A stretch of 32,000 nucleotides of DNA from Candidatus Saccharimonadota bacterium. Lineage in GTDB: Bacteria; Patescibacteriota; Gracilibacteria; UBA4473. Positions 1-30,370 of this stretch are shown here, piece after piece. A program made the translations under genes and the position numbers. The notes below the pieces were generated by a model. The model had not been told where the DNA came from. It was given only the letters and a program-made list of their open reading frames with translations, and made no database searches. Positions within the stretch are counted from its first letter, which is position 1, and each line of letters starts with the position of its first letter. The stretch lies in the NCBI GenBank assembly GCA_965228485.1, contig OZ245819.1, positions 660,001 through 692,000 on the forward strand, given 5' to 3'.

Positions 1-1674
1 TACAGCGATGGAACTTCAACCAGCATTGGAGATATTGATGGAGATGGAGAAGATGAAACTATTGATGGTTACTACGTAGACTCTCGATATGTTACCTTCG
101 GAGATCAAAGTGATCTAGAGTTCTCTTTTCCAACACGAGATCCAAACCCAGATGATGATAGAGAATTTCCTATGGGGTCTCCATTAAAGGATATGCGTCA
201 ATATTTATTCTTTACTCATCACCTAGCTTCTAAGTACGGGGGGAAATTTATGAGTTGTGGTTTGGTAAAAGTAAGTCCAACCGACGACTATGCACTTAAA
301 TCTTATGCTGGAGAAAAATCAATTCGATGGACTTATTATGGTTTCCCTCGACCTCAACAAACAAATGTTAGAACTAATGTTAAAAATCGAGGAGGAGATA
401 AATTCCGAATCGGAGATATTCGATTTATTGTCTCTGCAAAAGAAGTCGACACCGCCAATGGTGGATATCAATTCGATAATGAACTTCTAAAATACAATGT
501 TCTTATTTCTGCTTATGACAATAGAAGTAACTTCATGAATGAATTCAAGACACTCAAAATTTTTGAGGAAAACATGAATGACACCACTAACGCCACAAGT
601 TCTTTTGTTGAATCACGACTCAGTTTCTACCGAGCTCTTATCGATAAACTAAATCTTGGGATTCTAGGAAATCTTGAACTAGATGATGGGCTTGAAGAAG
701 ATTCTGTAAGTTCAATTGATCCAACACAGCTATATGCAAGTGTATTAGATGCTGGAGGATCAGACACCACTAAATCAGGCGGGCTATCAATCATGCCTGG
801 AGTAAGCTTAGAAACTTATGAGAAAGTGGAATCAATTGAAGACGAAACGACAAAAAACATGCTTCGATCCGCCCTGATTCCAGATTATGGAGGAATGATT
901 GCCGATTTTACAGAGAAGCCTGCATCAGAAATGAATGATTTTGAAAAAGCTTATAACGAATATCCTCTAACATACGAAGAACGAGTAGAAAATGTTGAAT
1001 ACATTTTGGAAAATAGTGGTGGAGAAATCGAAAATCTAACACCAGAAAACTTTGAATATAAGGACATGGTTTTCGGGGAAGCGGTTATTCCAGTGACAGA
1101 CAAAAGAATCAGAGACATCGTTTCACAAAGCTATCTAGACAACGAAATGGCCGAGTTAGAAGCTAAAAAACAAGCTGAATTAGACAAAGTTGTGGTGACT
1201 GATGATATGAGTATCACAGATCAACAGGCTGCATACCGAGCTCAAGATGAAATTGAAAGGAGATACGAAGGAGAGTTGTCAAAACTGATGACTTTTGAAG
1301 GAGAGCTTGCAAACTTCAAAGTAAAATTTGCTGACGTAGAAAATCAATTTGAACACGGTCGTATTACCGAAAGCGAATATGAAACTAAAAGAAAGGCTCT
1401 ACTTAATGACTTTAATAACACCGTCAAAACTGGACAACTAGCTGATAGTGTTTCTAGCGATAGACTAAAAGCTCTGTCTCAATCACTTACGAATCGTGTT
1501 AATAGTGTTCAAGAAAATCAATCAACGAGCACTGATGAAACTTCTTCAGGTAAAAAAGGATACAGTACTCAAACACTTATTGTTAAAGGGTCGGCTGTAG
1601 CTCTATTTATAATCGCAATAGGACTAGCTTTATTGGCTATACGAAAAATTAAAAAAAACAGTAACACAAAATAA
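1..1674 (+). CDS. Large surface protein, 3' part (5' end lies upstream of the window): acidic DxDGDG motif, coiled-coil stalk, single C-terminal transmembrane anchor
   Basis: Frame 1 is open from nt 1 (YSDGTSTSIGDIDGDGEDETIDGYY...), so the ATG at 172 in the track is internal. E/K/Q-rich heptad-like segment at about nt 1140-1450. Hydrophobic GSAVALFIIAIGLALLAI is followed by the basic tail RKIKKNSNTK. TAA stop at 1672-1674. No protein family recognised. Confidence 0.75.
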   Translation, partial: YSDGTSTSIGDIDGDGEDETIDGYYVDSRYVTFGDQSDLEFSFPTRDPNPDDDREFPMGSPLKDMRQYLFFTHHLASKYGGKFMSCGLVKVSPTDDYALKSYAGEKSIRWTYYGFPRPQQTNVRTNVKNRGGDKFRIGDIRFIVSAKEVDTANGGYQFDNELLKYNVLISAYDNRSNFMNEFKTLKIFEENMNDTTNATSSFVESRLSFYRALIDKLNLGILGNLELDDGLEEDSVSSIDPTQLYASVLDAGGSDTTKSGGLSIMPGVSLETYEKVESIEDETTKNMLRSALIPDYGGMIADFTEKPASEMNDFEKAYNEYPLTYEERVENVEYILENSGGEIENLTPENFEYKDMVFGEAVIPVTDKRIRDIVSQSYLDNEMAELEAKKQAELDKVVVTDDMSITDQQAAYRAQDEIERRYEGELSKLMTFEGELANFKVKFADVENQFEHGRITESEYETKRKALLNDFNNTVKTGQLADSVSSDRLKALSQSLTNRVNSVQENQSTSTDETSSGKKGYSTQTLIVKGSAVALFIIAIGLALLAIRKIKKNSNTK

Positions 1675-1685
1675 AAAAAATAATT

Positions 1686-4600
1686 ATGCATAAACACACA
1701 CAAAAGTTCATTGCTCTAGGCTATATCGCCATAAGTTTAGCGAGCTATGGTTCTGTGCAGGCACAATCTTTTAATTTCAGACTATCTGGAAACGTTCAGT
1801 ATAATGGAAGTCCTGCAGTAAATAGAAATTATAATGCCTCAGCAGAGCGTGGGCAGTACTTAAATAATAATCTCAACTCCATTGCCCCAACCGTAAGGAG
1901 TAATGCCATTGGTGGTAACGGAGGATTATCTACTCCAAGCCTAGCTCTTTCTGGAGCAAAGAAAGAAGGGAGAATTCCTGTTCAATTTAGCCGACAAATT
2001 GCGGTTTCTGGAGGAAGTCTTGGAAATGAATCCGTAAGAACCATCATTAAACACGATCTTACCCCTCCGCGTTGTCCAAGAAGTAACGAATGGCCACAAG
2101 GACTATCAAGCGATCCTGATGACTGGGCGCCGGGAATTATTCAATTCAGAACGGGGGATGCCACCATTTGTCATGATCAACTAACAGAAGGAGGAACCGT
2201 TAAAAACACAGGAGCTGGGTGTTTGACTCCTGGTGAACTCGTAAAAATTACTCGACATGGAGCTACTGCGACGTTCCCGCTTGAAGACCGGGTTGGGAAT
2301 AGTCGTTCTTGTACCACTCCTCCAGCAAAAATTGATTGTCGTCCACCATTGCTAAATGATCTGGAAGTACAACATGTCGGACTCTCTTTAGACAAGGAAC
2401 GTCCCGGATCTCAAGCCAATCCTAATAAATTTAAAGCTGATGATGGAGAACTAAACTTAATCATCGATGTGGAAGATAGTGACGCTTCTACTTCGTGTGG
2501 AAGATCAGGGCTTAACTGGAATGAACTTATTAATGGCTCTGAACTAGCCCAACTAGAAAGAAACTTAGCTAATGCTGCTGGTTCAAAAGAACTACTGGAA
2601 TTAGAACTTGATTCTTATAAGGCCGATGAAATTACTGCTCGAGGGAATCTTTTGAGTAACCTGATCAGTAAAGTAGCTTACGACTATCAACTGCAAATTT
2701 GGTCAGATGTACTTCAAGACATGAATAACAATAGCTCTGCCCTAAAAACAAAAACTCAAGCCCTTACCAATGAGATCAGTACTTTGGCAGGAAAAAGTCT
2801 CAACGATAACAAATGGGATCAGATTATTGCAGAACTTGAAAAACCTAAATATATAGGTCTGTCAAATAGAGATGGTTTATTAGATGATTTAAGAAGTATT
2901 AATTTAGAATTTGAGAATAACCGAATTAGAAATTATACCTCAAAAGCTGACAACCTTATTACAGGCTTAAAAATACCTCTCCCAAGTATTGTATCGTTAA
3001 ATCCAAATATAGATTCTGATGAATCTGATATCGATATTTATATGGAACAATGGAGTCGTGACATTCTTGAAGACTACGGACATATTGTAACTGGATGGAG
3101 TACATTTATTACTGATTCAGCTCAAGAAATTAACGATAAATATGAAGAATATTTAGAAGTTAAAACGGATTCAGAAGGAAGTATTGACCAAAAAATGACC
3201 TCTATCGGGAATTTCGATGCGACTGATTCATTTAAAGGTGTAGTAACAAGTCTTAAAAATGGGCTCGATACCAACAGAACTAACGCTAGTAGCGCTATCG
3301 GAAAAGTTGACAATCTTAATAGCCGTATCAATTCAGCTCTTAGTACTGTTAAAAGTAGTAGCAGTAGTACCCTAAATACTTCCGTTATTACGGGATTGAT
3401 TAATGAGGGGAATCAAGTGATTCAGACGGTTTCAACCTTAAACGCTGATGTTTCTGGAAACATCGGAGTACTTGGAAAACCAGCGAATACTTTTAACTAT
3501 TACATGGATGCTCCAACAACCGCAAAAGTAGATCAAATCGAGATTGCTTCTCAAGATTTTGGTGCGGTAGTAGAGCTCAATAAAACAACTATCCAAGATA
3601 TTCAAGATGAAACCGCTGATCTAGAAACTCAAATTGCAAACTACGAAACAGAGATGGAAGAAACGAGAGAAGAGCTTCAAGAAAAAATGGATGTTCAGCT
3701 TGAAGATATTGGGGATGAACTACAAACTCTTGGAATTTCTCATGTAGAAATCCGAAGGATTGGAACTGGGACAAAACAATTCTTCGTTAATACAGATATC
3801 AATCCTGAATATGGAACTACCTATGAATGGAATATTAACCAATATCAATTCGATGGTGAAAACTTCCCAATATTTTCTCAAGCAGGAAGATATCGAGTTG
3901 ATTTAAGGATCTACGATTACGCTAAAAATCCAATCAACCCTCATAGAACCGTCTTTATCACTATTAAGCCAGCAGAAGCTGATAAAAGCATGATCGAATC
4001 AACGATGCTTAATAACTGTAATGAAGATGGTCTATACGCAAATTTACAGGATTCTTGTCAGCTAAATATTATCGCTCAAGATCGATTTGAAAATCTGATC
4101 GCTACAAATTCTCCATTAACTATTGTTGTTGATAATCAAAATATCGATGGTTCTTACGATATCATCGAAACACTTGGAAATAATTATCCAAATGGAATTA
4201 GGCTTTATCCTAAATCAGATGTTACCAGACAGGATGGGAAAGAATTCTTTAACTGGAATAGCCCAAGCAATGGACAAAAAACTATTAGAGTGAGATCGAT
4301 TCTTCCAAGTGTAGAAGTTTTCCCAACACTAACAGGCTCTGCCATGATGAATGTGAAAACTAAAAATCTACCACTTAAATTTATCTCTCCAAAAATCGAT
4401 CCTCGAGGAAACATTACAGCGGCTAAACAAGCCTTTGATTTAACCGCTCCGTCTAAATTTAATCCATGGGTGTTCCTTTACATGAGTGATCGTCCAGACA
4501 ATCAACCACCAACAACTCCTTGGGAAGTTAAACTTAACACAAAACAATGTCTTTACACTTATTCAACAACGGAGAATGCTGTTAAAGATCTACCAACTAA

Positions 4601-6191
4601 CTTCGATGTATTCGTTAAAGCTGAAGCTGATGGTAATTTAGAGTTCTACGATGAGAATTTGAATGAAACTAGTGATGGATATAAAATTCTATTTAGAGGT
4701 GTTAATGGTGATAACGAGGAAGAAATTATATGCTTTCACGTTAGACCAGGAGGTGGGCAAACAAGTTTAGATTTTGGGTTTACTTCAAAAATTGACTACA
4801 TTCTTGAAGGTAAAAGAATCAGAATCCCTGGGAATCCACTAGGACTAAATGCGGCAGGAACTTGTATGTTCCCTACCAATCCCATTTGTTGTGGACAACC
4901 GGGAGGGCTTCCTATGACCGATCCTAAATGTACTTCTATTCCACCAACCGATCCTTGTGACGGTAAATCAGGAAAAGACCTACTCTGCTGTGAAACGCCA
5001 TCAAACCCAAGATGTAATAGCTGTCCAGATGGCAGCAATCCAAACTGTGTTACCTCTTGCTCTGGATTTACAGGAGATGATCGAGACTGCTGTCTCGATC
5101 CAACACTCAACAAGTGTAATGTAAACTGGCGATGTCCGGGCCTTACGGGAAGGGCTTTAGATTGTTGTCTCAATCCTCTAAGTGAGTACTGTGTGGATCT
5201 ACCACCAACTTGTTCTAACCAATTTTCAACTCCAATGGAAGTTCTTTGCTGCCAAGAGCCAAGCAATAGCTTCTGTAGAGATACTGTTTACCTCACAGCA
5301 GGTGCAGATATTGAGGGAGGAGTTCTCGCTGAAAATGAAGACTTCGTTTATATCACCTCTGATGACAACGATCTCAATGATCAAGCTTTATTCCTTGGAG
5401 GCGATAACAGTATTGATGTCCGAGAAGAAGCGACTCGAAATGCTTACGAACTGACACGAGGGATTAATCCTGAAAATAATGTTGGAGCTACCATGAACCT
5501 AGACTTATCAAGTTTGGATGATGGAGGTATTACCTACATTAAAGGAGGTCTAGTAAGAATTGGAGTCGGAGGAACTCCTGGTGCTCCAGTCACCATTACG
5601 GGTGGATCTCATACCGTGATTGTTGAAGATGGAAATGTTCTTATTGCTGGAGACTATGAATACGGTTTACCTGATGACATTCTTGGAGTAATGGTCATTA
5701 ATACCGATCCAAGCCCAGCTCCATCTACAGGAAACATCTTCGTACATCAAGGAATACGAAAATTTGCAGGAGTATTCTTCTCTGATGGTTCACTGACAAC
5801 GACTCAGAGCATGAACGCTCCAAGCTTTGCCGAAAACTTTGATCGAGAAACTATCAACGGGACTCTAGATCGTCAACTTATATTAACAGGAGCCCTCTTA
5901 ACAAGGAATACTCTCGGAGGTTCTGAATTACTCGATATTAGAAATCCGTGGGGACAACCAATTACGTTGGAAGAATCTCAAAAATACGACCTTCACTATG
6001 TAAGACGATATACTCCAGTGTACAATCCAAACACAGGTCTCCAAACGAACCAAAATAAATGTACACAGCTAAATGGATTAGACTGTTATGACAATAAGCG
6101 TTCATTCATTATTCGAATTGATCCAAAAATTGGATATAATCCACCGCCAGGATTCAGCGTTAATGAAAACGCAAATTTCCAAACAAGATAA
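1686..6191 (+). CDS. Giant secreted protein (1501 aa): signal peptide, Cys-containing Ig-like N-terminal region, long coiled coils, PKD/Ig-like module, Cys-rich repeat array, Gly-rich beta-solenoid-like C-terminal region
   Basis: ATG lies 11 nt after the upstream stop. N-terminus MHKHTQKFIALGYIAISLASYGSVQA-QS looks like a Sec signal peptide. Coiled-coil-like stretches at about nt 2540-2920 and 3590-3735. FSQAGRYRVDLRIYDYAKN resembles a PKD/Ig strand pattern. 22 Cys lie in aa 1060-1197. GGITYIKGGLVRIGVGGTPGAPVTITGGSHTVIVEDGNVLIAG resembles short-strand solenoid repeats. TAA stop followed by a strong hairpin. No named family recognised. Confidence 0.85.
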   Translation: MHKHTQKFIALGYIAISLASYGSVQAQSFNFRLSGNVQYNGSPAVNRNYNASAERGQYLNNNLNSIAPTVRSNAIGGNGGLSTPSLALSGAKKEGRIPVQFSRQIAVSGGSLGNESVRTIIKHDLTPPRCPRSNEWPQGLSSDPDDWAPGIIQFRTGDATICHDQLTEGGTVKNTGAGCLTPGELVKITRHGATATFPLEDRVGNSRSCTTPPAKIDCRPPLLNDLEVQHVGLSLDKERPGSQANPNKFKADDGELNLIIDVEDSDASTSCGRSGLNWNELINGSELAQLERNLANAAGSKELLELELDSYKADEITARGNLLSNLISKVAYDYQLQIWSDVLQDMNNNSSALKTKTQALTNEISTLAGKSLNDNKWDQIIAELEKPKYIGLSNRDGLLDDLRSINLEFENNRIRNYTSKADNLITGLKIPLPSIVSLNPNIDSDESDIDIYMEQWSRDILEDYGHIVTGWSTFITDSAQEINDKYEEYLEVKTDSEGSIDQKMTSIGNFDATDSFKGVVTSLKNGLDTNRTNASSAIGKVDNLNSRINSALSTVKSSSSSTLNTSVITGLINEGNQVIQTVSTLNADVSGNIGVLGKPANTFNYYMDAPTTAKVDQIEIASQDFGAVVELNKTTIQDIQDETADLETQIANYETEMEETREELQEKMDVQLEDIGDELQTLGISHVEIRRIGTGTKQFFVNTDINPEYGTTYEWNINQYQFDGENFPIFSQAGRYRVDLRIYDYAKNPINPHRTVFITIKPAEADKSMIESTMLNNCNEDGLYANLQDSCQLNIIAQDRFENLIATNSPLTIVVDNQNIDGSYDIIETLGNNYPNGIRLYPKSDVTRQDGKEFFNWNSPSNGQKTIRVRSILPSVEVFPTLTGSAMMNVKTKNLPLKFISPKIDPRGNITAAKQAFDLTAPSKFNPWVFLYMSDRPDNQPPTTPWEVKLNTKQCLYTYSTTENAVKDLPTNFDVFVKAEADGNLEFYDENLNETSDGYKILFRGVNGDNEEEIICFHVRPGGGQTSLDFGFTSKIDYILEGKRIRIPGNPLGLNAAGTCMFPTNPICCGQPGGLPMTDPKCTSIPPTDPCDGKSGKDLLCCETPSNPRCNSCPDGSNPNCVTSCSGFTGDDRDCCLDPTLNKCNVNWRCPGLTGRALDCCLNPLSEYCVDLPPTCSNQFSTPMEVLCCQEPSNSFCRDTVYLTAGADIEGGVLAENEDFVYITSDDNDLNDQALFLGGDNSIDVREEATRNAYELTRGINPENNVGATMNLDLSSLDDGGITYIKGGLVRIGVGGTPGAPVTITGGSHTVIVEDGNVLIAGDYEYGLPDDILGVMVINTDPSPAPSTGNIFVHQGIRKFAGVFFSDGSLTTTQSMNAPSFAENFDRETINGTLDRQLILTGALLTRNTLGGSELLDIRNPWGQPITLEESQKYDLHYVRRYTPVYNPNTGLQTNQNKCTQLNGLDCYDNKRSFIIRIDPKIGYNPPPGFSVNENANFQTR
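4863..5276 (+). repeat. Protein-level tandem cysteine repeat inside the 1501-aa ORF: four exact CC-x2-P-x4-C units plus one degenerate unit
   Basis: CCGQPGGLPMTDPKC / CCETPSNPRC / CCLDPTLNKC / CCLNPLSEYC / CCQEPSNSFC, with extra single Cys between units. 22 Cys in 138 residues, an even number. Confidence 0.8.
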
Positions 6192-6193
6192 CC

Positions 6194-6226
6194 AAAAAAG
6201 AGCCTCTAACGAGGCTCTTTTTTTCT
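6194..6226. terminator. Bidirectional rho-independent terminator between the convergent giant ORF and prfA
   Basis: aaaaagagcctc-taac-gaggctcttttt: GC-containing stem of 8-12 bp, 4-nt loop, A-run upstream and T-run downstream. Confidence 0.8.
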
Positions 6227-6242
6227 ATAAATTTTAGAAAGA

Positions 6243-7310
6243 TTATACAGACTTTTCCAGAAGGAATTTCTGCTCTTCTAAAGCTAGAGCTTCTACAATT
6301 TTATCTAAGCTTCCATCTAGAATCCCTGGAAGATTTGAGAAACTTTGACTGATTCGATGATCAGTCACTCTATCTTGAGGGAAGTTATAAGTTCTAATTT
6401 TATCAGAACGATCTCCCGTTCCGATTTGAGCCAATCGTTTTTCTCCCAACTCTTTTTGACGCTTTTCTTCTTCAATAGCATTCAATCGTGCTCTTAACAC
6501 CTTAAAGGCTTTATCTTTATTTTTATGTTGAGATTTTTCATCCTGACAAGTCACCACAATTCCCGTTGGAACATGAGTAAGTCTGACCGCTGAATCGGTT
6601 GTATTTACAGACTGCCCTCCACAACCAGAACTTCTAAAAACATCCACACGAACATCACTCGGTTTAATTTCGATATCATTCTCTTCAACCTCAGCCAAAA
6701 CAACGACTGAAATAGCGGATGTATGTACCCGTCCTTGAGATTCCGTTGCAGGAATACGCTGTACTCTATGGACTCCCGATTCAAATTTAAGCTTCCCATA
6801 AGCACCAAAACCTTCTATACGAAAAATTATTTCTTTAATTCCCCCTCCTTCATTCGCTGATTCTGACATCACTTCTGGTTTGAAACCCTGAGTTTCTGAA
6901 AATCGTAGAATCATTCTTGAAACTTCTTCTGCAAATAGAGCCGCTTCATCACCTCCTACTCCAGCTCGAATTTCAACAATACAGTGCCGATCATCACTTG
7001 GATCACGAGGTATTAAAGCTATTTTTAGAGCTTCCTCAGCTTCTGGAAGTCCTGATTTTGCCATTTCAAGCTCTTCTTTAGCCATTTCTATGAGTTCTGC
7101 ATCCTTTTCTGTATTGATAATCTCTTCAGCTTCAATTTTTTGATTATAAATCTTTAAATACGCCTCAGCTATTTCAAATTTTGATTCCAGAGACTTTCTT
7201 TTCTGAGATAAGGAAACGAATCTTTTTTGATCTGAAAAAACCTCTGGATTCGCTAATTCTTCCTCCAAACTTTGAAATTCACTGACAACCGCTTGAGCTT
7301 TATCTTGCAT
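6243..7310 (-). CDS. prfA: Peptide chain release factor 1
   Basis: RF1-specific PAT tripeptide ([14 protein letters not shown]) and GGQ motif (SGCGGQSVN). RF1-like sequence begins at [12 protein letters not shown] (ATG at 7310). The 37 extra N-terminal codons in the track (to 7421) cover the promoter/leader region and are not RF1-like. TAA stop. Confidence 0.93.
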
Positions 7311-7321
7311 AACTGATTGGG

Positions 7322-7349
7322 ATAGTATTTTTTTTGCATAAATGTGCAA
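7322..7349 (-). promoter_or_regulatory. Candidate sigma70-type promoter of prfA (TTGCAC-16-TACTAT), 11 nt from the ATG
   Basis: Minus strand reads cTTGCACatttatgcaaaaaaaaTACTATcccaatcagttATG. No SD motif in the short leader. Confidence 0.35.
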
Positions 7350-7373
7350 GCTCAGACAAAAATCATCAAAAAA

Positions 7374-7402
7374 TTGACAGATAAAAATCAAACCAGTAGA
7401 TT
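7374..7402 (+). promoter_or_regulatory. Promoter of the aroG leader transcript (TTGACA-17-TAGATT)
   Basis: Perfect -35 TTGACA at 7374-7379, 17-nt spacer, TAGATT at 7397-7402. The expected TSS at about 7408-7410 lies only a few nt before the leader ATG at 7413. Confidence 0.55.
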
Positions 7403-7412
7403 TAGCGATGTA

Positions 7413-7457
7413 ATGCAACAATTTTTTAGCGCTTTCTTTTATTTCTGGACGACATAG
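7413..7457 (+). CDS. Putative attenuation leader peptide [14 protein letters not shown] (7 of 14 residues aromatic: 5 Phe, 1 Tyr, 1 Trp)
   Basis: atg caa caa ttt ttt agc gct ttc ttt tat ttc tgg acg aca tag, read directly from the sequence. It lies between a consensus-like promoter and a terminator hairpin, 92 nt upstream of DAHP synthase. Confidence 0.6.
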
Positions 7458-7458
7458 C

Positions 7459-7525
7459 CGTCGGTTAATTTTAAAAGTAAAGTACTAAGAAAATTTAGAC
7501 CGGCGAATAGAAACGCTGGTTTTTT
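7459..7525 (+). promoter_or_regulatory. Attenuator: alternative antiterminator (7459-7472 with 7490-7505) and intrinsic terminator (7499-7505 with 7514-7520, plus T-run 7520-7525)
   Basis: Terminator is accggcg-aatagaaa-cgctggt followed by ttttt. The 5' arm accggcg (7499-7505) can instead pair with cgtcggt (7459-7465). That helix extends, with two 1-nt bulges, through ttaatttt/aaaattta. The two structures share 7499-7505 and are mutually exclusive. Confidence 0.55.
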
Positions 7526-7548
7526 GTATAATTAACATAAAAATTAAC

Positions 7549-8592
7549 ATGTCTTACGTTGTTGAAAAGCCGTTACCGACCAATAAAGAGGTTTTAGAAA
7601 AATTGCCTCTAGGAGATAATCTAACTCAAAAAGTTATCCAAGATCAGGAAGAAATTAAGGCTATTATTGAGGGACGAGATCCAAGGAAGATTATGATCAT
7701 TGGGCCTTGTAGTGCCTGGCCAGATGCAGCCGTATTAGAATATGCTGAAAAACTAAAGCCAATTGCTGAAAAAGTTTCAGATAAATTGAAAATTATTATG
7801 AGGGTATATCTCCAAAAACCAAGAACTACCGTTGGTTGGCTCGGGCCTGTAAATCAACCCGATCCTTTTGAAGCTCCTGATCTAGAATCTGGAACCTATT
7901 ACTGTCGATCAATGATGATTGAAGCCGTAAGAAAAGGATATGCTATTGCTGATGAAGCTTTATTTACGCATAATGATAATTATTTTGTAGACCTGCTTAG
8001 CTGGATTGCTATTGGGGCTCGATCAGCAGAAGATCAAGAACATCGGATCTTTGCTTCAATGATTCCTCATCCTGTAGGCCTAAAAAATCCAACATCAGGA
8101 AATATTGATATCGGCGTCAATTCCGTTATAGCAGCGCAACACGGACATGTTTTTGCTTTTCATGGAAAACAAATCCGCACCTCTGGAAACCCTCATGCAC
8201 ATCTCATTTTACGAGGAGGAAATGGAACTTCTAACCATGATTATCAATCACTTCTTGAAGCCAGTGAAAAACTACACGCAAAAATGGTAAAAAATCCAAG
8301 TATTATTGTAGATGCTAGCCATGATAATTCTATCTGTTCAGTTAGTGGTCAAAAAGATCCACTAAAACAACCTGAAATACTTAAAGAGATTATCGAAAGT
8401 ATGAATAGAAATGATCTTATCAAATCAACCGTTAAAGGTTTTATGGTCGAAAGTTTCTTAGTCGATGGAAAACAAAGTGCCGATAAAGCTTCTGGAAAAG
8501 AAGAACTTGAATACGGAAAGTCAATCACTGATGGGTGCCTTGGAATGCAAAGAACTGAAGAAATGCTCTTAGAAATAACTAATAAAATTTAA
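7549..8592 (+). CDS. aroG: 3-deoxy-7-phosphoheptulonate (DAHP) synthase, class I (AroG/F/H type)
   Basis: IMIIGPCSAWPD, RVYLQKPRTTVGWLGPVNQPD and a length of 347 aa closely parallel E. coli AroG (VIGPCSIHD, RVYFEKPRTTVGWKG). TAA stop. Confidence 0.88.
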   Translation: MSYVVEKPLPTNKEVLEKLPLGDNLTQKVIQDQEEIKAIIEGRDPRKIMIIGPCSAWPDAAVLEYAEKLKPIAEKVSDKLKIIMRVYLQKPRTTVGWLGPVNQPDPFEAPDLESGTYYCRSMMIEAVRKGYAIADEALFTHNDNYFVDLLSWIAIGARSAEDQEHRIFASMIPHPVGLKNPTSGNIDIGVNSVIAAQHGHVFAFHGKQIRTSGNPHAHLILRGGNGTSNHDYQSLLEASEKLHAKMVKNPSIIVDASHDNSICSVSGQKDPLKQPEILKEIIESMNRNDLIKSTVKGFMVESFLVDGKQSADKASGKEELEYGKSITDGCLGMQRTEEMLLEITNKI

Positions 8593-8620
8593 CTCTTCTA
8601 CCCGTTATAAAAACGATAAA

Positions 8621-8643
8621 AACAGTGATCCAGAATCACTGTT
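8621..8643 (+). terminator. Hairpin terminator after aroG, overlapping the stop codon of the convergent sigma gene
   Basis: aacagtgat-ccaga-atcactgtt (9-bp stem) flanked by A-rich and T-rich sequence. The T-tract is interrupted (ttatttat). Confidence 0.4.
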
Positions 8644-9232
8644 ATTTATCGTCTTCACTAAAAAACTTACGAATTTCTCTTAAAGCTCTTAGTTGCAGAA
8701 TCCGTATATTACCTTCTGTTCGGTTGAGAACTTGAGCCACTTCTTTGTTAGAAAATCCTTCTAAAAATTTTAACTCCAAAACTTCTCTATGAATAGGTTT
8801 TAACCTTTTCAAAGATGCATGAAGTTTTTCGTATTGAAAATGATTATGAACTTCTTCATCAGGCAACAAATTCATCTCATCAGGTAATGATTCCCAAAAA
8901 TCTTCAAACTCACTATCTTCTTCATTTCCAATTCCTAAAATTTCTTTCTTCTTTCGGTAATGGTCAATAACTGTATTGTGAGCAATTTTATAAATCCAAG
9001 CAGAAAAGCTCACTTTTGGCTGTGGCTGATATTTCTTCAAATTTTGAACGACCTTTAAAAACACATCTCCTACTACATCTTCACATACCTCTGAATCTAC
9101 TCGAAAAGACACATAACGAAATATTCTATCAAAATACCAGTCAAATAACTGAGTGAAACTAGCCTGATCTCCGTTCTGCGCTTTTTGCACAACAGATTCA
9201 ACAACTTCTGGAGAAAGATGTTCCTCACTCAT
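8642..9232 (-). CDS. RNA polymerase sigma-70 family factor, ECF-type (group 4)
   Basis: Region 2-like RIFRYVSFRV...AWIYKIAHNTVIDHYRK and region 4 HTH FSNKEVAQVLNRTEGNIRILQLRALREIRK. 196 aa. TAA stop. Confidence 0.8.
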   Translation of the reverse strand: MSEEHLSPEVVESVVQKAQNGDQASFTQLFDWYFDRIFRYVSFRVDSEVCEDVVGDVFLKVVQNLKKYQPQPKVSFSAWIYKIAHNTVIDHYRKKKEILGIGNEEDSEFEDFWESLPDEMNLLPDEEVHNHFQYEKLHASLKRLKPIHREVLELKFLEGFSNKEVAQVLNRTEGNIRILQLRALREIRKFFSEDDK

Positions 9233-9238
9233 GAGTTA

Positions 9239-9244
9239 ATTATA
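9239..9244 (-). promoter_or_regulatory. Perfect TATAAT box 6 nt upstream of the sigma-factor ATG (candidate leaderless transcript)
   Basis: Minus strand reads ...catttctcTATAATtaactcATG. No good -35 at 16-18 nt (TTGCTT at 14 nt). Confidence 0.35.
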
Positions 9245-9273
9245 GAGAAATGTACTTGAAGCAAAACGATAAT

Positions 9274-9717
9274 TTATGATTTCTGCGACAAGTAGTATTC
9301 CAAAATGTTAACCGCCGCAAGATCATCTACTCTATCTGTTCTATTATTTATTGTTTTTTGGGAAGAATAACGCTCATTAACAAAATCTATTTCTAGGCTA
9401 AAAATATCTACCAATTCTTTCGAAACTGATCGAATTTTTTTACAGATATGATTTTCTTCCCCCTTAATTCCTATAGGTAATCCCAGCACTAATAAATCAA
9501 CTTTCTTGGTTTTTAAAATGTCATCAATTTCACTGATGAGATTCCCTGTTTTGATGACTTTATAAGGAAGAACTGTAACTCCATCGACAGCATAGGCAAA
9601 ACCACAAAATTTCTCACCATAATCAAGCCCTAAAAGAGATTTTCCTGACAAGGGAGTAACACCAAACTCGTTTCTAGCCTGTAAATCCAAGAGGTCTCTT
9701 TGAGAAATTTTTTTCAT
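9274..9717 (-). CDS. ruvX: Holliday junction resolvase-like / pre-16S rRNA nuclease YqgF
   Basis: LLGLDYGEKFCGFAY (catalytic GxD motif) and DLLVLGLPIGIKGEE. 147 aa. Confidence 0.8.
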   Translation of the reverse strand: MKKISQRDLLDLQARNEFGVTPLSGKSLLGLDYGEKFCGFAYAVDGVTVLPYKVIKTGNLISEIDDILKTKKVDLLVLGLPIGIKGEENHICKKIRSVSKELVDIFSLEIDFVNERYSSQKTINNRTDRVDDLAAVNILEYYLSQKS

Positions 9718-15482: not shown

Positions 15483-16361
15483 ATGAATATAGAATCAGCG
15501 ATCATCTTTGGAACTCAACAATTAAAAGCGCTTCCAAATGGCAAATTAGAAGCCGAGGTTTTATTGTCCGCCGTTCTAAAGAAAGATCGTATTTATTTAA
15601 AAACTAACACTAAGAAAAATTTATTTTTTTGGCAGGTAAATACCTTTAAAAAATATCTAAAAAAACGAAGTAAACATATCCCAACCGCTTACATCCTCGG
15701 ACATAAAGATTGGTATGATTTAAGAATACAGGTTAGTCGACACACTTTAATTCCCCGAGATGAAACCGAAATACTCTGTGACCACATACTCAAAAGCCTG
15801 GGAGATATCCAGGAAACCCATATAGGGGGAAATAACATTAAAACCTTGGCAGACCTAAAGATATCGCACCACTTAAAATCAATCTTGGATGTCGGAACTG
15901 GCAGTGGTTGTATTGCTATTCTTATGAAAAAATTCTTTCCGATGGCAAAGGTACAAGCTGTAGATATTTCATCAAAAGCTCTTAAAATGGCTCAAAAGAA
16001 TGCAGCTGAACATAATGCGGCTATTGATTTTTCCAAATCAGACCTGCTCGAAAACATTAAATATGGGAGTATTATTGATCTTATTATTGCAAACCTTCCC
16101 TATATTCCAGAGAATATGGTCCTTGCCGAAGAAGTTAATAAAGAACCTAGATCAGCACTATTCTCAGGCAAAGATGGATTGGATCATATTCGAAAACTGG
16201 CCAACCAGCTTAAAGAAAAAAATATTATGTTTGGAGCTTTATGGTTAGAATTTCTTCCACAGCAAAAAGACGAAATTCAGCATATATTTTTAGGTCACTC
16301 CATACAATTTTTCCCCGATGCAGGAGGCGATATATTCTTCGCCCAAATCAAACCCTTCTAA
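15483..16361 (+). CDS. prmC: Release-factor glutamine N5-methyltransferase PrmC (HemK)
   Basis: SAM-binding motif ILDVGTGSGCIAI, and a catalytic motif at the NPPY position that reads IIANLPYIPE. 292 aa. Confidence 0.8.
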   Translation: MNIESAIIFGTQQLKALPNGKLEAEVLLSAVLKKDRIYLKTNTKKNLFFWQVNTFKKYLKKRSKHIPTAYILGHKDWYDLRIQVSRHTLIPRDETEILCDHILKSLGDIQETHIGGNNIKTLADLKISHHLKSILDVGTGSGCIAILMKKFFPMAKVQAVDISSKALKMAQKNAAEHNAAIDFSKSDLLENIKYGSIIDLIIANLPYIPENMVLAEEVNKEPRSALFSGKDGLDHIRKLANQLKEKNIMFGALWLEFLPQQKDEIQHIFLGHSIQFFPDAGGDIFFAQIKPF

Positions 16362-23789: not shown

Positions 23790-24371
23790 GTGAAGCTTAT
23801 CATTAATACCAGTTTTCTCCCTTATTTTTGTACGCTATTTGATGGTAGCGATAACTTGATCGATTCCTGTTTCTGGGAAGATGGAAAAAGCAGCAGCACC
23901 ATAATTTGGGGTTTCTTTAGTAAACACGAAATTAAAAAACAATCTGTAGATTTTATTGGTGCGGTTACAGGCCCTGGAGGATTTAGCCATCTCAGAACTA
24001 GTAGTGTCATAATGCATGCGTTGAAATTTTATTTTCAACTTCCTATACACCAAGCAAGAGCCGATAAAATCATTTCAAACTTTTTAACTCAAAAAGGACA
24101 CTCATCGCACTTTCTTCTGAACTCCTTTGGACAAGGATTCTTTGTCCCTAAAGAAGAAAATATCATTCGCTATGAAAATTTTGAAGCCCTACCCCAAAGA
24201 ATAAAAGAAACTCCCCAGTGGATTAGTTTATTACCTGAAGAAAAACAAAAACACTTCAATAATACTATTATTTGCTCACTAGAAGGCATTGAAAAATCAA
24301 CACTCCAGGTATTGCAAAAGAAAGCACCTAAGAACAGTTTTGTTCCTGATTACGAATATCCTCCAGTTTAA
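23790..24371 (+). CDS. tsaB: TsaB (YeaZ)-like tRNA t6A biosynthesis protein, short divergent form
   Basis: GTG start 4 nt after the upstream stop. MKLIINTS (versus the usual iDTS) and FIGAVTGPGGFSHLRTSSVIMHALKFYFQLPIH match the GPGSFTGlRig..akgl core of TsaB. 193 aa. Confidence 0.5.
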   Translation: MKLIINTSFLPYFCTLFDGSDNLIDSCFWEDGKSSSTIIWGFFSKHEIKKQSVDFIGAVTGPGGFSHLRTSSVIMHALKFYFQLPIHQARADKIISNFLTQKGHSSHFLLNSFGQGFFVPKEENIIRYENFEALPQRIKETPQWISLLPEEKQKHFNNTIICSLEGIEKSTLQVLQKKAPKNSFVPDYEYPPV

Positions 24372-24928
24372 GACTGGTTGCTAAGAAAGAATTTTATGAG
24401 ATCTTCAGTTGATAGGTCTTCTGGAGCTTCTCCTAAAACAAATTTAACGGTCGATTCATCATAACCCAAACTTTTCAAAGCCTCGGTAGCTTCTTGCTTG
24501 TTTACTGAAGTCTGCACAACTTCTTCACTCAAATCAATTTTACCTTTCAGTTCCACAATTAATTTCTGAGCCATCTTCTTCCCAATTCCTGGAGTCTGCA
24601 TTACAAAGTCCACATCACCTCTATCAATCGCAGAAATAAATTCTCCTACAGGCTGACTTAAGATCTGCAAAGCCATCTTAGGCCCAACACCCGAAATCCC
24701 AATAAGCTTCTCAAAAAACTGTCGTTCCTCTAAAGTTTCAAACCCATATAAAGATATTTCTTGCTCTCTCACTAAAGTATGTACAAAACAAGTAAGCAGA
24801 CCATCAAGGTTACATTTGGAGAGCAAAGACCCTGTTGGGAATAACTCGTATCCAACTCCTGCAGTAGTAACCACAATAATTGTTTTTGGTAAAACCTGTA
24901 AAACCCGTCCCTCTAAATACCCAATCAT
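24368..24928 (-). CDS. ruvA: Holliday junction DNA helicase subunit RuvA
   Basis: Canonical MIGYLEGRV start at 24928. HhH motifs GISGVGPKMALQIL and TPGIGKKMAQKLI. The 23 extra N-terminal codons in the track run into the tRNA gene and are rejected. Confidence 0.9.
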   Translation of the reverse strand: MIGYLEGRVLQVLPKTIIVVTTAGVGYELFPTGSLLSKCNLDGLLTCFVHTLVREQEISLYGFETLEERQFFEKLIGISGVGPKMALQILSQPVGEFISAIDRGDVDFVMQTPGIGKKMAQKLIVELKGKIDLSEEVVQTSVNKQEATEALKSLGYDESTVKFVLGEAPEDLSTEDLIKFFLSNQS

Positions 24929-24948
24929 TGCGATATAATTTAAATAAA

Positions 24949-25025
<77 letters not shown>

Positions 25026-27967: not shown

Positions 27968-30370
27968 CTAATCTTTAAAAGTTTCAACCAGTATTTTTGC
28001 TGCTTCAGCCCTATTTAAAGAATTAAAAGGCTTAAAAGTTCCATCTTCATAGCCTTTAACAATTCCTTTATTAAAAGCTCCTAAAACCCATGGTATTTCC
28101 CATGAGTCTAGGTCTGAAAATGGCGGTTTGTCACCAAGAAAATAATCTTCTGATTTTGGTTCGTAACCGTGAATAGCCAGTAAAACTTTTACAGCTTCTG
28201 CACGCAAGAGTAGAGAATCTGGACGAACACTTCCATCTAAAAACCCTTCTAGAATATTTTTATCGTGTAATAGTGTTAAACTTTTTACTAAATCTTCTTC
28301 TCGTTGATTGATATCGTTAAAAACTAATTCTGATTCCAAAATCACATTCTTTACTTCTTCTGGATAAAGATAATGAGCGACCCAAATAAAAAATTCTCCT
28401 CTAGAAATAGCCTTATCTAAAACTATTTCTCCACTGACTGGAACTTCCACAATATTTTTTTGAGCTAACTCCATTAAATATTTATCAGCCCAATGAGTTC
28501 CGAAAGATCTGTTCCAAAATAATCGATGAGAAAAATTAAAAAGGTTATCTCCATTTTCAACTACTTCGACACAACGATAGGAGACACAAAAGGCAACATT
28601 ATCTTGCCAGGAAAATGGCTCTCCCACTAAACCTGAATAATCCTCATACAATTTAAAGTAAGCCTCTGAATAAGGTTTTACACGAATTAAACTTCTCCCT
28701 TCTGTCGTATAATCAAACGGTGATAATACTTTTTCACCATAGAGTGGTACTCCTTTATAAAGAGATAAAAAATTAGGATTATATATTGATTCTAACGCTT
28801 GAATATAATGCACTTTTTCAAAGTAGTCTAAATGATTAAAATTCGATAAATAGTTTAATGACAAATCAATTCCAAAGTACTCTAAAATAGAAGGCAATGC
28901 GGCTTCAGCTCCATCTAAAAAAGCTTCATTCTCTAAGTATGTTTTAAGATGAAAAGCCACTTGAAATTGCCCCCACCACTGAGATAAAAAACCTAAGCGT
29001 TGATAATCTAAAACGACTTCCTCCTGAGGAACTCTCTCAACATAAACTAGGCTATTTTTATACTGATTAATTTGTACAGGACGCACCTCTGATAATTCAT
29101 TAACAGACGTTAAGTTTTCAGCTTTATAAATATTTCCGAGATGATTCCAAAGAGACTGAAATTCATCTAATTCATAAAAATCATAACCAGAAGAAAAGAG
29201 ACTTATATAACTTCCATTAAAAAGCTGTGTCCAATTTGAAATTTTCACATTTTTACCAAAATCCAAAAACATGATTGGTTTAGAATATTGTTTCCAAAAA
29301 TCTATATTTTCAGGCACTTTAAAGTCAGAAAACTCTCCCAAAACCAAAATATAATCAACGCGTTCTGAATCATTTAAATTTCGAATAAATTCTCTCCAAA
29401 AATCCCAATCAGACTTACCAGTAGGAGTCGTTTCTGAAACGAATTCCCTCCAGTTTTTTTGATGCGACAACGTATTAGGCTCAAACTCTTCTGTAAGAAA
29501 AAAGAACTCTTCATCAAACAAACCTATTTTAATTCGATTATTACCAATTTCTCTTAAAACATCTGGTAATATTGTTTTGACCTTTGCCCACCTTTCTCCA
29601 TACATAGAACCAGACTGATCAATAAGGAGTAAGATATTTTTATCCTTTAAATCTGCTCTAAAAGGTCTTATGAAATGAGCGTGATAAATAAAATTATCTC
29701 GAGAATGTGAAAGCTTTGCCTCTGATTTATTAGTAATAAAGAAATTAAAATCGCCCTCAGAAAATGTATTCCCACTCCAGTGCCATACCAATGTATTATC
29801 CTCAAATAAGAAGTCTTTAGACGGATAGTTAGGTGAAAAAAAGTGAGTGGAATTCCCATGAAAAACAAGATCTATTTTTACTTCTTCATCAAAAACTTTC
29901 TCATGCAAAAAAACTGTAAGACTAGAAAAATCATGAATGGAAACTAATGGCTCAGACCATTCATACTTAATCGTATTTTCTTCTTCCTCCAATAAGAGTG
30001 GTTCACTTATTAAAAGATTTTTGAAAGGCTCTTTTCCTAGGGAAAAATACGAAGAATCATTGGTTGATCTCACAAGATCCAATAGATATTTTTTTTTATT
30101 CTCTCCCTGCAAAACCTGCTTAGAAACTCCTTTTGAATTAAGGTATAAATTTAAATTATTAGCATTGGGTGGTAATGGCTGTCGAACAATTAATGTCTCA
30201 TTATCTGAGAGGTGCTTCCAAGTCTCGACTACCTCTATGTTTGCACTGCCTCCCTGAATATCAATACGAATTGATTTTGACGATGGTCCTGACGCAAAAA
30301 CACTTCCAAAACTGGTCATCAAAATTAGAGACAAGATAGTACGAAACCAAAAATGAGATGACATAGCCAT
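27968..30370 (-). CDS. Secreted VIT-like / von Willebrand factor A / SLH-domain cell-wall-anchored protein
   Basis: Signal peptide (FRTILSLILMTSFGSVFA-SG). vWA MIDAS motif in KNILLLIDQSGSMYGERW (aa 245-260). C-terminal SLH repeats (FNDINQ...LLRAEAVKVLLAIHG; FSDLDSWEIPWVLGAFNKGIVKGYEDGTFKPFNSLNRAEAAKILVETF). The N-terminal VIT-like assignment is tentative. 800 aa. Confidence 0.8.
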   Translation of the reverse strand: MAMSSHFWFRTILSLILMTSFGSVFASGPSSKSIRIDIQGGSANIEVVETWKHLSDNETLIVRQPLPPNANNLNLYLNSKGVSKQVLQGENKKKYLLDLVRSTNDSSYFSLGKEPFKNLLISEPLLLEEEENTIKYEWSEPLVSIHDFSSLTVFLHEKVFDEEVKIDLVFHGNSTHFFSPNYPSKDFLFEDNTLVWHWSGNTFSEGDFNFFITNKSEAKLSHSRDNFIYHAHFIRPFRADLKDKNILLLIDQSGSMYGERWAKVKTILPDVLREIGNNRIKIGLFDEEFFFLTEEFEPNTLSHQKNWREFVSETTPTGKSDWDFWREFIRNLNDSERVDYILVLGEFSDFKVPENIDFWKQYSKPIMFLDFGKNVKISNWTQLFNGSYISLFSSGYDFYELDEFQSLWNHLGNIYKAENLTSVNELSEVRPVQINQYKNSLVYVERVPQEEVVLDYQRLGFLSQWWGQFQVAFHLKTYLENEAFLDGAEAALPSILEYFGIDLSLNYLSNFNHLDYFEKVHYIQALESIYNPNFLSLYKGVPLYGEKVLSPFDYTTEGRSLIRVKPYSEAYFKLYEDYSGLVGEPFSWQDNVAFCVSYRCVEVVENGDNLFNFSHRLFWNRSFGTHWADKYLMELAQKNIVEVPVSGEIVLDKAISRGEFFIWVAHYLYPEEVKNVILESELVFNDINQREEDLVKSLTLLHDKNILEGFLDGSVRPDSLLLRAEAVKVLLAIHGYEPKSEDYFLGDKPPFSDLDSWEIPWVLGAFNKGIVKGYEDGTFKPFNSLNRAEAAKILVETFKD

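Follow-up and report, generated by a model that had tools for sequence, protein, structure and literature searches.

Gene content of the aroG locus

The DNA analysed here, a stretch of 32,000 nucleotides (nt) of contig OZ245819.1 with 37% G+C (the window), encodes a 3-deoxy-D-arabino-heptulosonate-7-phosphate (DAHP) synthase, the product of aroG, on its forward strand. Directly 5' of aroG lies an element composed of a promoter, a short leader open reading frame (ORF) rich in codons for phenylalanine (F), tyrosine (Y) and tryptophan (W), and a series of hairpins that ends in an intrinsic terminator (Table 1). The aroG product scored 288.6 bits against TIGR00034 and 353.8 bits against NF009395 (cut-off 343).

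On the minus strand, an ORF with a TTG start (6243-7421) reaches into this element from the other side. It is an over-extended prfA, the gene for release factor RF1. The RF1 profile and the proteins of relatives align from the ATG at 7310, and the surplus 111 nt cover the leader promoter and the first leader codons, an annotation trap. As prfA truly starts at 7310, the interval 7311-7548 is a divergent intergenic spacer. A preliminary description of this DNA had already argued that the element was hidden within a spurious N-terminal extension of prfA, and the RF1 profiles and orthologues bear this out.

For comparison, aroG loci were drawn from species-representative genomes, metagenomes and two exact look-ups. 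The closest DAHP synthases are 57-76% identical to that of the window and come from metagenome-assembled genomes (MAGs) of uncultured organisms, which bear the labels Candidatus Altimarinota, Gracilibacteria or Peribacteria and belong to the Patescibacteria. The order prfA (minus strand), leader, aroG, extracytoplasmic function (ECF) sigma factor gene (minus strand) and ruvX (minus strand) is kept in most near relatives. Where other genes lie upstream (aspS in locus L010, ribosomal protein genes in L020, a gene for a pyridoxal phosphate-dependent enzyme in L161), aroG still has the leader. This suggests that the element is linked to aroG rather than to prfA.

Two of these loci carry further genes of interest for chorismate metabolism. 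A gene for anthranilate/aminodeoxychorismate synthase component II (trpG/pabA type) follows aroG in L020 (4116-4739), and a dihydropteroate synthase gene lies near aroG in L010 (4787-5608). These bacteria may therefore also use chorismate to make Trp, folate or both.

Table 1. Features of the aroG leader region and other annotated features of the window, in window coordinates
Feature	Position	Strand	Basis and remarks
-35 hexamer TTGACA of the leader promoter	7374-7379	+	Sequence reading, promoter scan
-10 hexamer TAGATT	7397-7402	+	17-nt spacer after the -35 hexamer; ends 10 nt 5' of the leader ATG
Leader ORF, 14 codons and TAG stop	7413-7457	+	Sequence reading; F/Y/W-rich counterparts in 22 relatives
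Segment 1, protector (1:2) 5' arm, inside the Phe/Tyr codons	7423-7441	+	Minimum free energy fold, pair list; partner 7472-7491
Candidate control codons F9-Y10-F11-W12 (UUU UAU UUC UGG)	7437-7448	+	Codon scan; a stall gives the antiterminator in the model
Small hairpin CGAC-AUAGCC-GUCG over the stop codon	7450-7463	+	Stem 7450-7453/7460-7463; -3.1 kcal/mol
Segment 2, antiterminator 5' arm	7459-7472	+	Begins 2 nt past the stop codon
Protector 3' arm, partner of segment 1	7472-7491	+	Minimum free energy fold, pair list
Segment 3, antiterminator 3' arm	7490-7505	+	Pair list; 7498-7505 also terminator 5' arm
Segment 4, terminator 3' arm and U-run	7514-7525	+	Arm 7514-7521; U-run 7520-7525
TATAAT hexamer directly after the U-run	7527-7532	+	Sequence reading; candidate weak secondary promoter or AT-rich sequence
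aroG, class-I (AroF/G/H family) DAHP synthase, 347 amino acids (aa), monocistronic	7549-8592	+	TIGR00034, NF009395; PF00793 in homologues
Bidirectional terminator hairpin closing the aroG transcript	8621-8643	both	Terminator-like on both strands; before the convergent ECF sigma gene
tRNA-Ala (GGC) gene	24949-25025	-	Overlap with mechanical ruvA ORF 24368-24997 at its 5' end

Leader ORF and promoter

The leader reads ATG CAA CAA TTT TTT AGC GCT TTC TTT TAT TTC TGG ACG ACA TAG, so that 7 of the 14 residues of its peptide are aromatic (5 F, 1 Y and 1 W). An in-frame extension that begins at a GTG and would give 37 codons (7344-7457) was considered and rejected, as the conserved promoter falls within it. 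No Shine-Dalgarno (SD)-like motif (AGGA, GGAG or GAGG at -22 to -4) precedes any of 25 window genes (0/25). The leader shares the lack of an SD site with all 25 genes.

The promoter TTGACA-17-TAGATT is the top sigma-70-like match (10/12) within 6000-9500. In 17 of 21 leaders scanned (that of the window included) TTGAC starts 36-41 nt 5' of the leader ATG, against a background expectation of about 0.004 per locus. In the relatives, a TAnnnT hexamer follows TTGAC after 16-18 nt and ends 9-12 nt 5' of the leader ATG. Such conserved distances speak for the promoter and predict a 5' untranslated region (UTR) of only about 2-6 nt for the leader mRNA.

The preliminary description had read these parts in the same way: the 14-codon ORF with its five Phe, one Tyr and one Trp, the consensus-like promoter at 7374-7402 and the aroG-type ATG at 7549, which opens the full DAHP synthase, all stand as described, and the promoter spacing proves to be conserved in relatives. 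The claim that the host uses no SD sites holds in the window. An ATG-TAA start-stop pair (7408-7413) that had been noted as overlapping the leader ATG (ATGTAATG) is indeed present. It is absent from the relatives compared, except for a similar ATG-TGT-TAA that overlaps the leader ATG of L008, about 9 nt 5' of that ATG. Since it is not conserved, the pair is probably incidental. If the start site were A7408, the mRNA would open with a 5'-terminal AUG-UAA.

RNA structures of the leader

The unconstrained fold of 7405-7530 has a free energy of -33.2 kcal/mol (z = -3.43; 1 of 200 shuffles was equally stable), and its minimum free energy structure consists of a protector hairpin and the terminator. 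The protector (7423-7441/7472-7491) is predicted at -18.5 kcal/mol when 7422-7492 is folded separately. This large 1:2 hairpin is an addition that the folding brings to the preliminary description, where it had been missed. The small hairpin over the stop codon takes up part of the antiterminator 5' arm.

The two pairings on which that description had built its case are both recovered. Segment 7459-7472 can pair with 7490-7505, by 14 pairs (-13.6 kcal/mol when folded separately, with a small inner hairpin counted in). The intrinsic terminator, placed at about 7499-7525 and said to reuse antiterminator bases, is a stem of 7498-7505 with 7514-7521 followed by a T-run (-11.9 kcal/mol for the stem, folded separately; hairpin plus T-run 7497-7525). 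Antiterminator and terminator are mutually exclusive because both use 7498-7505. Positions 7460-7463, 7472 and 7490-7491 are used by both protector and antiterminator, which without this overlap would make a pseudoknot. The predicted layout is thus the classical scheme of 1:2, 2:3 and 3:4 hairpins. A ribosome at the stop codon would cover segment 2, because this segment begins 2 nt after it. The scanned region contains more terminator-like sites than expected (6 vs 1.7), some of which lie at the ends of neighbouring genes.

The effect of ribosome position was modelled by masking the ribosome footprint codon by codon and computing constrained partition functions, from which the probability of the terminator stem was taken. 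Three footprints were assumed, reaching 9, 12 or 15 nt beyond the A site. The modelled terminator probability is 0.99 for the free RNA and stays at 0.73-0.99 while the A site is on any of codons 2-8. It falls to 0.00-0.14 with the A site on F9-T13 (the exact codons vary with the footprint assumed) and returns to 0.99 at T14 and the stop codon with all three footprints. Stalls at about F9-W12 (at T13 only with the shortest footprint) therefore relieve termination in the model and stalls at F4, F5 and F8 do not. The effective control codons would be approximately F9-Y10-F11-W12, as the terminator probability drops only there. These four include codons for each of Phe, Tyr and Trp.

When, as a control, only the spacer 7458-7496 was dinucleotide-shuffled 300 times, the full three-state behaviour appeared in 2/300 shuffles, and a stop-minus-stall difference of at least 0.85 in 5/300. 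Constrained folding, which the preliminary description had put forward as a check for mutually exclusive structures, thus gives the antiterminator under a stall and the terminator with the ribosome at the stop codon. In this model the leader geometry fits a ribosome sensor: the ribosome at the stop would mask the antiterminator 5' arm, and a stall on the control codons would free it.

Conservation in relatives

We identified a mini-ORF of this kind at 22 loci of Gracilibacteria/Peribacteria type (L001, L002, L005, L006, L008-L014, L017, L018, L020-L022, L081, L083, L084, L086, L161 and L162). In each it starts with ATG, spans 13-24 codons with 5-10 aromatic residues, and lies 122-202 nt 5' of aroG; examples of the peptides are MQKFFYGFFYFWFNRGLA, MKIFAFDFFYFWFRASEQN, MQRYFYGFYFWTGSRR, MIFNTFFFWLFAYFYQK and MQNFFYTFFYFFWNA. 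The F/Y/W-rich mini-ORF with a terminator near aroG orthologues, for which the preliminary description had suggested a search, is therefore present in 22 relatives. No leader was found at L089.

Such ORFs are rare elsewhere. In 275 kb of surrounding sequence (both strands, 17 loci) there are 17 other aromatic-rich mini-ORFs, whereas all 17 loci (17/17) have one at -122 to -202 of aroG. F and Y occur in 21/21 tabulated leaders and W in 17/21 (P = 6e-8 vs background mini-ORFs). Across the leaders the composition is 29% F, 9% Y and 4.5% W, against 4.9, 3.2 and 1.0% in the proteins of the window, which corresponds to an enrichment of about 6-fold for F, 3-fold for Y and 4.5-fold for W.

All leaders analysed have a hairpin with a U-run 20-42 nt past their stop codon. 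The hairpin sequences differ almost completely among relatives and the architecture is kept. Of 21 leaders modelled, an equilibrium switch from stall to stop was obtained for 13 (the window, L001, L005, L006, L008, L009, L012, L013, L017, L081, L083, L084 and L086), and a partial one for L002. When the terminator right arm was removed at 17 loci, the left arm was paired at a mean probability of 0.80 under a stall. The value was 0.30 for a ribosome at the stop codon, and shuffling of the upstream region gave 0.50. At 16 of the 17 loci the left arm has its partner near the stop codon, at -19 to +14 nt.

Predicted mechanism

We conclude that the element is very probably a ribosome-mediated (leader-peptide) transcription attenuator of the single-gene aroG transcript. 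This is the mechanism that the preliminary description had proposed. It is now strongly supported in silico, as all of its elements recur in the 22 relatives, the antiterminator arm at the stop codon in most of them, and constrained folding reproduces its logic.

We predict that transcription begins a few nt 5' of the leader ATG, from the TTGACA/TAGATT promoter (a position suggested by the conserved spacing), and that a ribosome translates the 14-codon leader as RNA polymerase advances. With Phe-, Tyr- and Trp-tRNA plentiful, the ribosome would reach the TAG at 7455 and cover 7459-7472. With this segment covered, 7498-7505 would pair with 7514-7521, and the terminator and U-run would release a transcript of about 115 nt before aroG. 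If any of the aromatic aminoacyl-tRNAs were scarce, the ribosome would stall on F9-Y10-F11-W12 and melt the protector hairpin. Segment 7459-7472 could then pair with 7490-7505, sequestering the terminator left arm, and the polymerase would read into aroG. In RNA that is not translated, the protector hairpin would form and transcription would be expected to terminate.

Several observations weigh against this interpretation or narrow its reach. The leader has no SD site and a predicted 5' UTR of 2-6 nt, and its translation is assumed. The TATAAT hexamer between the U-run and aroG could drive attenuator-independent transcription. At L018, L020, L021 and L022 the terminators are too stable to open at equilibrium. 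If the terminator right arm is omitted there, in imitation of folding during transcription, a segment overlapping the stop codon becomes the partner of the left arm; in the model, switching at these loci would work only by a kinetic, co-transcriptional argument. The terminators of L010, L011 and L014 are weak or ambiguous. A MAFFT alignment of 12 leaders matched the ORF and the U-run and could not align the hairpin arms, because the arm sequences have diverged completely; the alignment is too poor for a covariation test, and per-sequence folding with shuffle controls stood in for a covariation statistic. Finally, no leader was found at L004, L007, L015 and L016 (aroG 57-64% identical), nor at any more distant Patescibacteria locus (aroG at most 54% identical) among those examined.

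Alternative explanations

The promoter, mini-ORF and terminator could instead make up a separate short gene, for a small hydrophobic peptide or a small RNA, with aroG transcribed from the TATAAT at 7527-7532 and no regulatory read-through. This hexamer is perfect and lies 16 nt 5' of the aroG ATG. TATAAT or TAT(T/A)(A/C)T also follows the U-run in L001, L002, L006, L008, L011, L013, L081 and L083, 11-17 nt (mostly 14-17) before the aroG ATG, and published work describes attenuator RNAs of other bacteria that can act in trans. We nevertheless regard a separate gene as unlikely, as no -35 match accompanies the hexamer in the window and the conserved pairing between the stop-codon region and the terminator left arm would be purposeless in a plain terminator. 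The peptide, moreover, is conserved in aromatic composition and not in sequence, its length ranges over 13-24 codons, and the element is always found with aroG despite changing neighbours. A weak constitutive promoter at the TATAAT, giving basal aroG expression, could coexist with the attenuator.

That the terminator/antiterminator switch is set by a factor acting in trans (for example a TRAP-like RNA-binding protein, or uncharged tRNA in the manner of a T-box), with the mini-ORF incidental, appears very unlikely to us. Aromatic amino-acid genes of Firmicutes are often under T-box or TRAP control, and the leader, having no SD site and a very short 5' UTR, is only presumed to be translated. On the other side, there is no match to a T-box or other riboswitch family even at E <= 10, and the leader RNA is only about 115 nt long. 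Such a factor would also leave unexplained the in-frame F/Y/W enrichment that runs from an ATG at a fixed promoter distance in 22 relatives, and the antiterminator arm tracks the stop codon. Chance, by which an AT-rich spacer would happen to hold a T-rich and hence Phe-rich ORF and a hairpin, gains some plausibility from the 37% G+C, from the AT-rich nature of the codons TTT, TTC and TAT, and from the promoter-like matches in the scanned region, which at 7 vs 10.3 expected from shuffles are not above expectation. It is effectively refuted by the comparative data: the mini-ORF stands in the same place in 17/17 loci against the sparse background given above, the promoter spacing is conserved, W occurs in 17/21 leaders, and the shuffle controls seldom reproduce the switch.

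Comparison with known attenuators

No Rfam family was matched at threshold in the element of the window or in eight related loci. The best Rfam match of the element is Phe_leader (RF01859) over 7407-7529, with 25.8 bits against a gathering threshold of 55 (E = 0.069). Nothing relevant was found in Rfam at E <= 1 in the eight related loci, and no T-box or riboswitch family matched in 7000-7900 at E <= 10. A single tRNA is the only Rfam match at gathering score in the whole window. Explanations of the element as a T-box, a riboswitch, or a Trp or His leader were rejected for want of Rfam support.

The strong likeness to the leaders of the pheA and pheST operons that the preliminary description had drawn stands for composition and does not extend to family membership, as the Phe_leader score lies below threshold. 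Like pheL and pheM (the leaders of E. coli pheA and pheST), the element combines a Phe-rich peptide of 14-15 codons with protector, antiterminator and terminator hairpins. In contrast, pheL and pheM are Phe-only, SD-led and gammaproteobacterial, and control chorismate mutase/prephenate dehydratase or Phe-tRNA synthetase.

In the 14-codon E. coli trpL leader, codons 10-11 are the control codons and lie three codons ahead of the stop, and the RNA forms 1:2, 2:3 and 3:4 hairpins. The window leader follows the same hairpin scheme, with predicted control codons 9-12 that end two codons before the stop. It differs in that trpL senses only Trp and controls the trp operon instead of the common pathway, and there is neither sequence similarity nor a Trp_leader match. 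Multivalent attenuators are also known: that of E. coli ilvGMEDA senses Leu, Val and Ile, that of the thr operon Thr and Ile, and a shortage of any of these leads to read-through. The window leader shares with them the presence of several end-product codons in one leader (here F, Y and W). The pathways are other ones and there is no sequence relation.

The closest functional counterpart is found in Corynebacterium glutamicum, where the aroR leader, with a Phe-Tyr-Phe motif, attenuates aroF, a DAHP synthase gene, and stalling raises transcription (Neshat et al., 2014, as described in PMC11802643, PMC4046766 and PMC7356990). A review of this system reports a response to Phe and not to Tyr, and makes no mention of Trp. 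Both systems place an aromatic leader directly 5' of a DAHP synthase gene, at the same step and with the same logic, and the F-Y-F motif is present in the window leader (FFYFW). aroR was compared by description, and the resemblance is best seen as a functional analogy; any homology to aroR would probably escape detection, in view of the phylogenetic distance and the turnover of leaders. C. glutamicum is an actinobacterium, and the Patescibacteria leaders carry F, Y and usually one W. Attenuation of E. coli aroF was also suggested in older work.

Leaders that lack an SD site and have hardly any 5' UTR have a precedent in Deinococcus deserti, in which 14 attenuator leader peptides were predicted on mRNAs that start at the start codon or 1 nt before it and lack SD sites (PMC4007540). 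In the Patescibacteria leaders, by contrast, 9-12 nt separate the end of the -10 hexamer from the ATG, which predicts a UTR of 2-6 nt and not a strictly leaderless mRNA.

The mechanism itself is not new, because attenuation is textbook knowledge and a DAHP synthase leader is documented in C. glutamicum. The element is a real new case of a known kind of attenuator in an unusual lineage. A literature search of incomplete coverage returned no report of leader-peptide attenuation in bacteria of the Candidate Phyla Radiation (CPR), which is weak evidence of absence. On balance, we favour the view that it founds an uncatalogued leader family in a clade of Gracilibacteria/Peribacteria type and is the first leader-peptide attenuator from the CPR, SD-less, nearly leaderless, and able to sense Phe, Tyr and Trp together by means of neighbouring control codons for each.

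Other observations

A longer mini-ORF was seen 5' of aroG-type genes outside the Patescibacteria. It has 35-37 codons, is rich in F and Y, ends in ...FACFFYFSFFSPELGG(R), and lies 180-350 nt 5' of the gene at nine Legionella loci (L033, L037, L039, L051, L059, L069, L074, L075 and L079) and in a gammaproteobacterial MAG (L050); for the Legionella leader the distance is 180-290 nt. In most Legionella loci a terminator (AACCCCCAGC...GCUGGGGGUU with a U-run) follows 16-20 nt after the mini-ORF stop; our scripted terminator search found none at L069 or L050. At L069 the last CUGGGUGGU codons can, judged by eye, pair with the terminator left arm. The Legionella DAHP synthase is about 53% identical to that of the window, and its leader differs from those described above in being longer, in lacking Trp and in having a gammaproteobacterial host. 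No Rfam match for the Legionella element and no report of it in a full-text literature search were found. It is probably an unannotated Phe/Tyr attenuator.

The stop codons of the 25 confident window genes are TAA in 22 cases, TAG in 3 and TGA in none, with no in-frame TGA, and TGA is common in out-of-frame ORFs of the window. RF1 (prfA, 6243-7310, minus strand) is the only release factor seen in the window. From these counts, TGA looks avoided or unassigned in the window genes, a noteworthy trait for a relative of the Gracilibacteria, which read UGA as Gly. In L020, no ORF of at least 90 aa is found under translation table 11 over 2236-2910, just 5' of the leader, consistent with TGA being read as sense (code 25). 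The L018 leader ends in TGA, and its ORF boundary would need re-reading if L018 too reads TGA as sense.

TATAAT-like hexamers that end 6-7 nt before the ATG were noted for the genes at 8642-9232, 9274-9717, 15483-16361 and 23790-24371, hinting at leaderless mRNAs. A largely leaderless genome was considered and rejected, as -10 hexamers 6-8 nt before start codons are too few to support the claim.

NCBIfam gave no match at E <= 1e-5 for the large ORFs at 1686-6191 (plus strand, 1501 aa), 172-1674 (plus strand, 500 aa) and 27968-30370 (minus strand, 800 aa). L002, L005 and L006 conserve the C-terminal portion of the 1501-aa protein beside prfA. Profile alignment places the true start of ruvA about 23 codons downstream of the start of its mechanical ORF.

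Implications

The bacterium that carries the element belongs to the Patescibacteria, and so to the CPR, and has a genome of about 1.3 Mb. Bacteria of the CPR are usually described as host-dependent for amino acids. A conserved switch that is tuned to Phe, Tyr and Trp and placed on the committed shikimate step suggests, as an indirect but specific sign, that aromatic synthesis is adjusted to tRNA charging. In a literature search of incomplete coverage, we found no paper that links Peregrinibacteria with the shikimate pathway. The roughly 23 leader sequences provide a seed for a new RNA family, and the over-extended prfA call is corrected.

If the attenuator operates as predicted, its leader must be translated without an SD site from a 5' UTR of 2-6 nt, and fast enough to couple with RNA polymerase. 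The element would thus be a compact, testable reporter of translation initiation in SD-less CPR bacteria. Organisms with genomes of about 1.3 Mb would then make and fine-tune chorismate and aromatic amino acids de novo, with tight coupling of transcription and translation.

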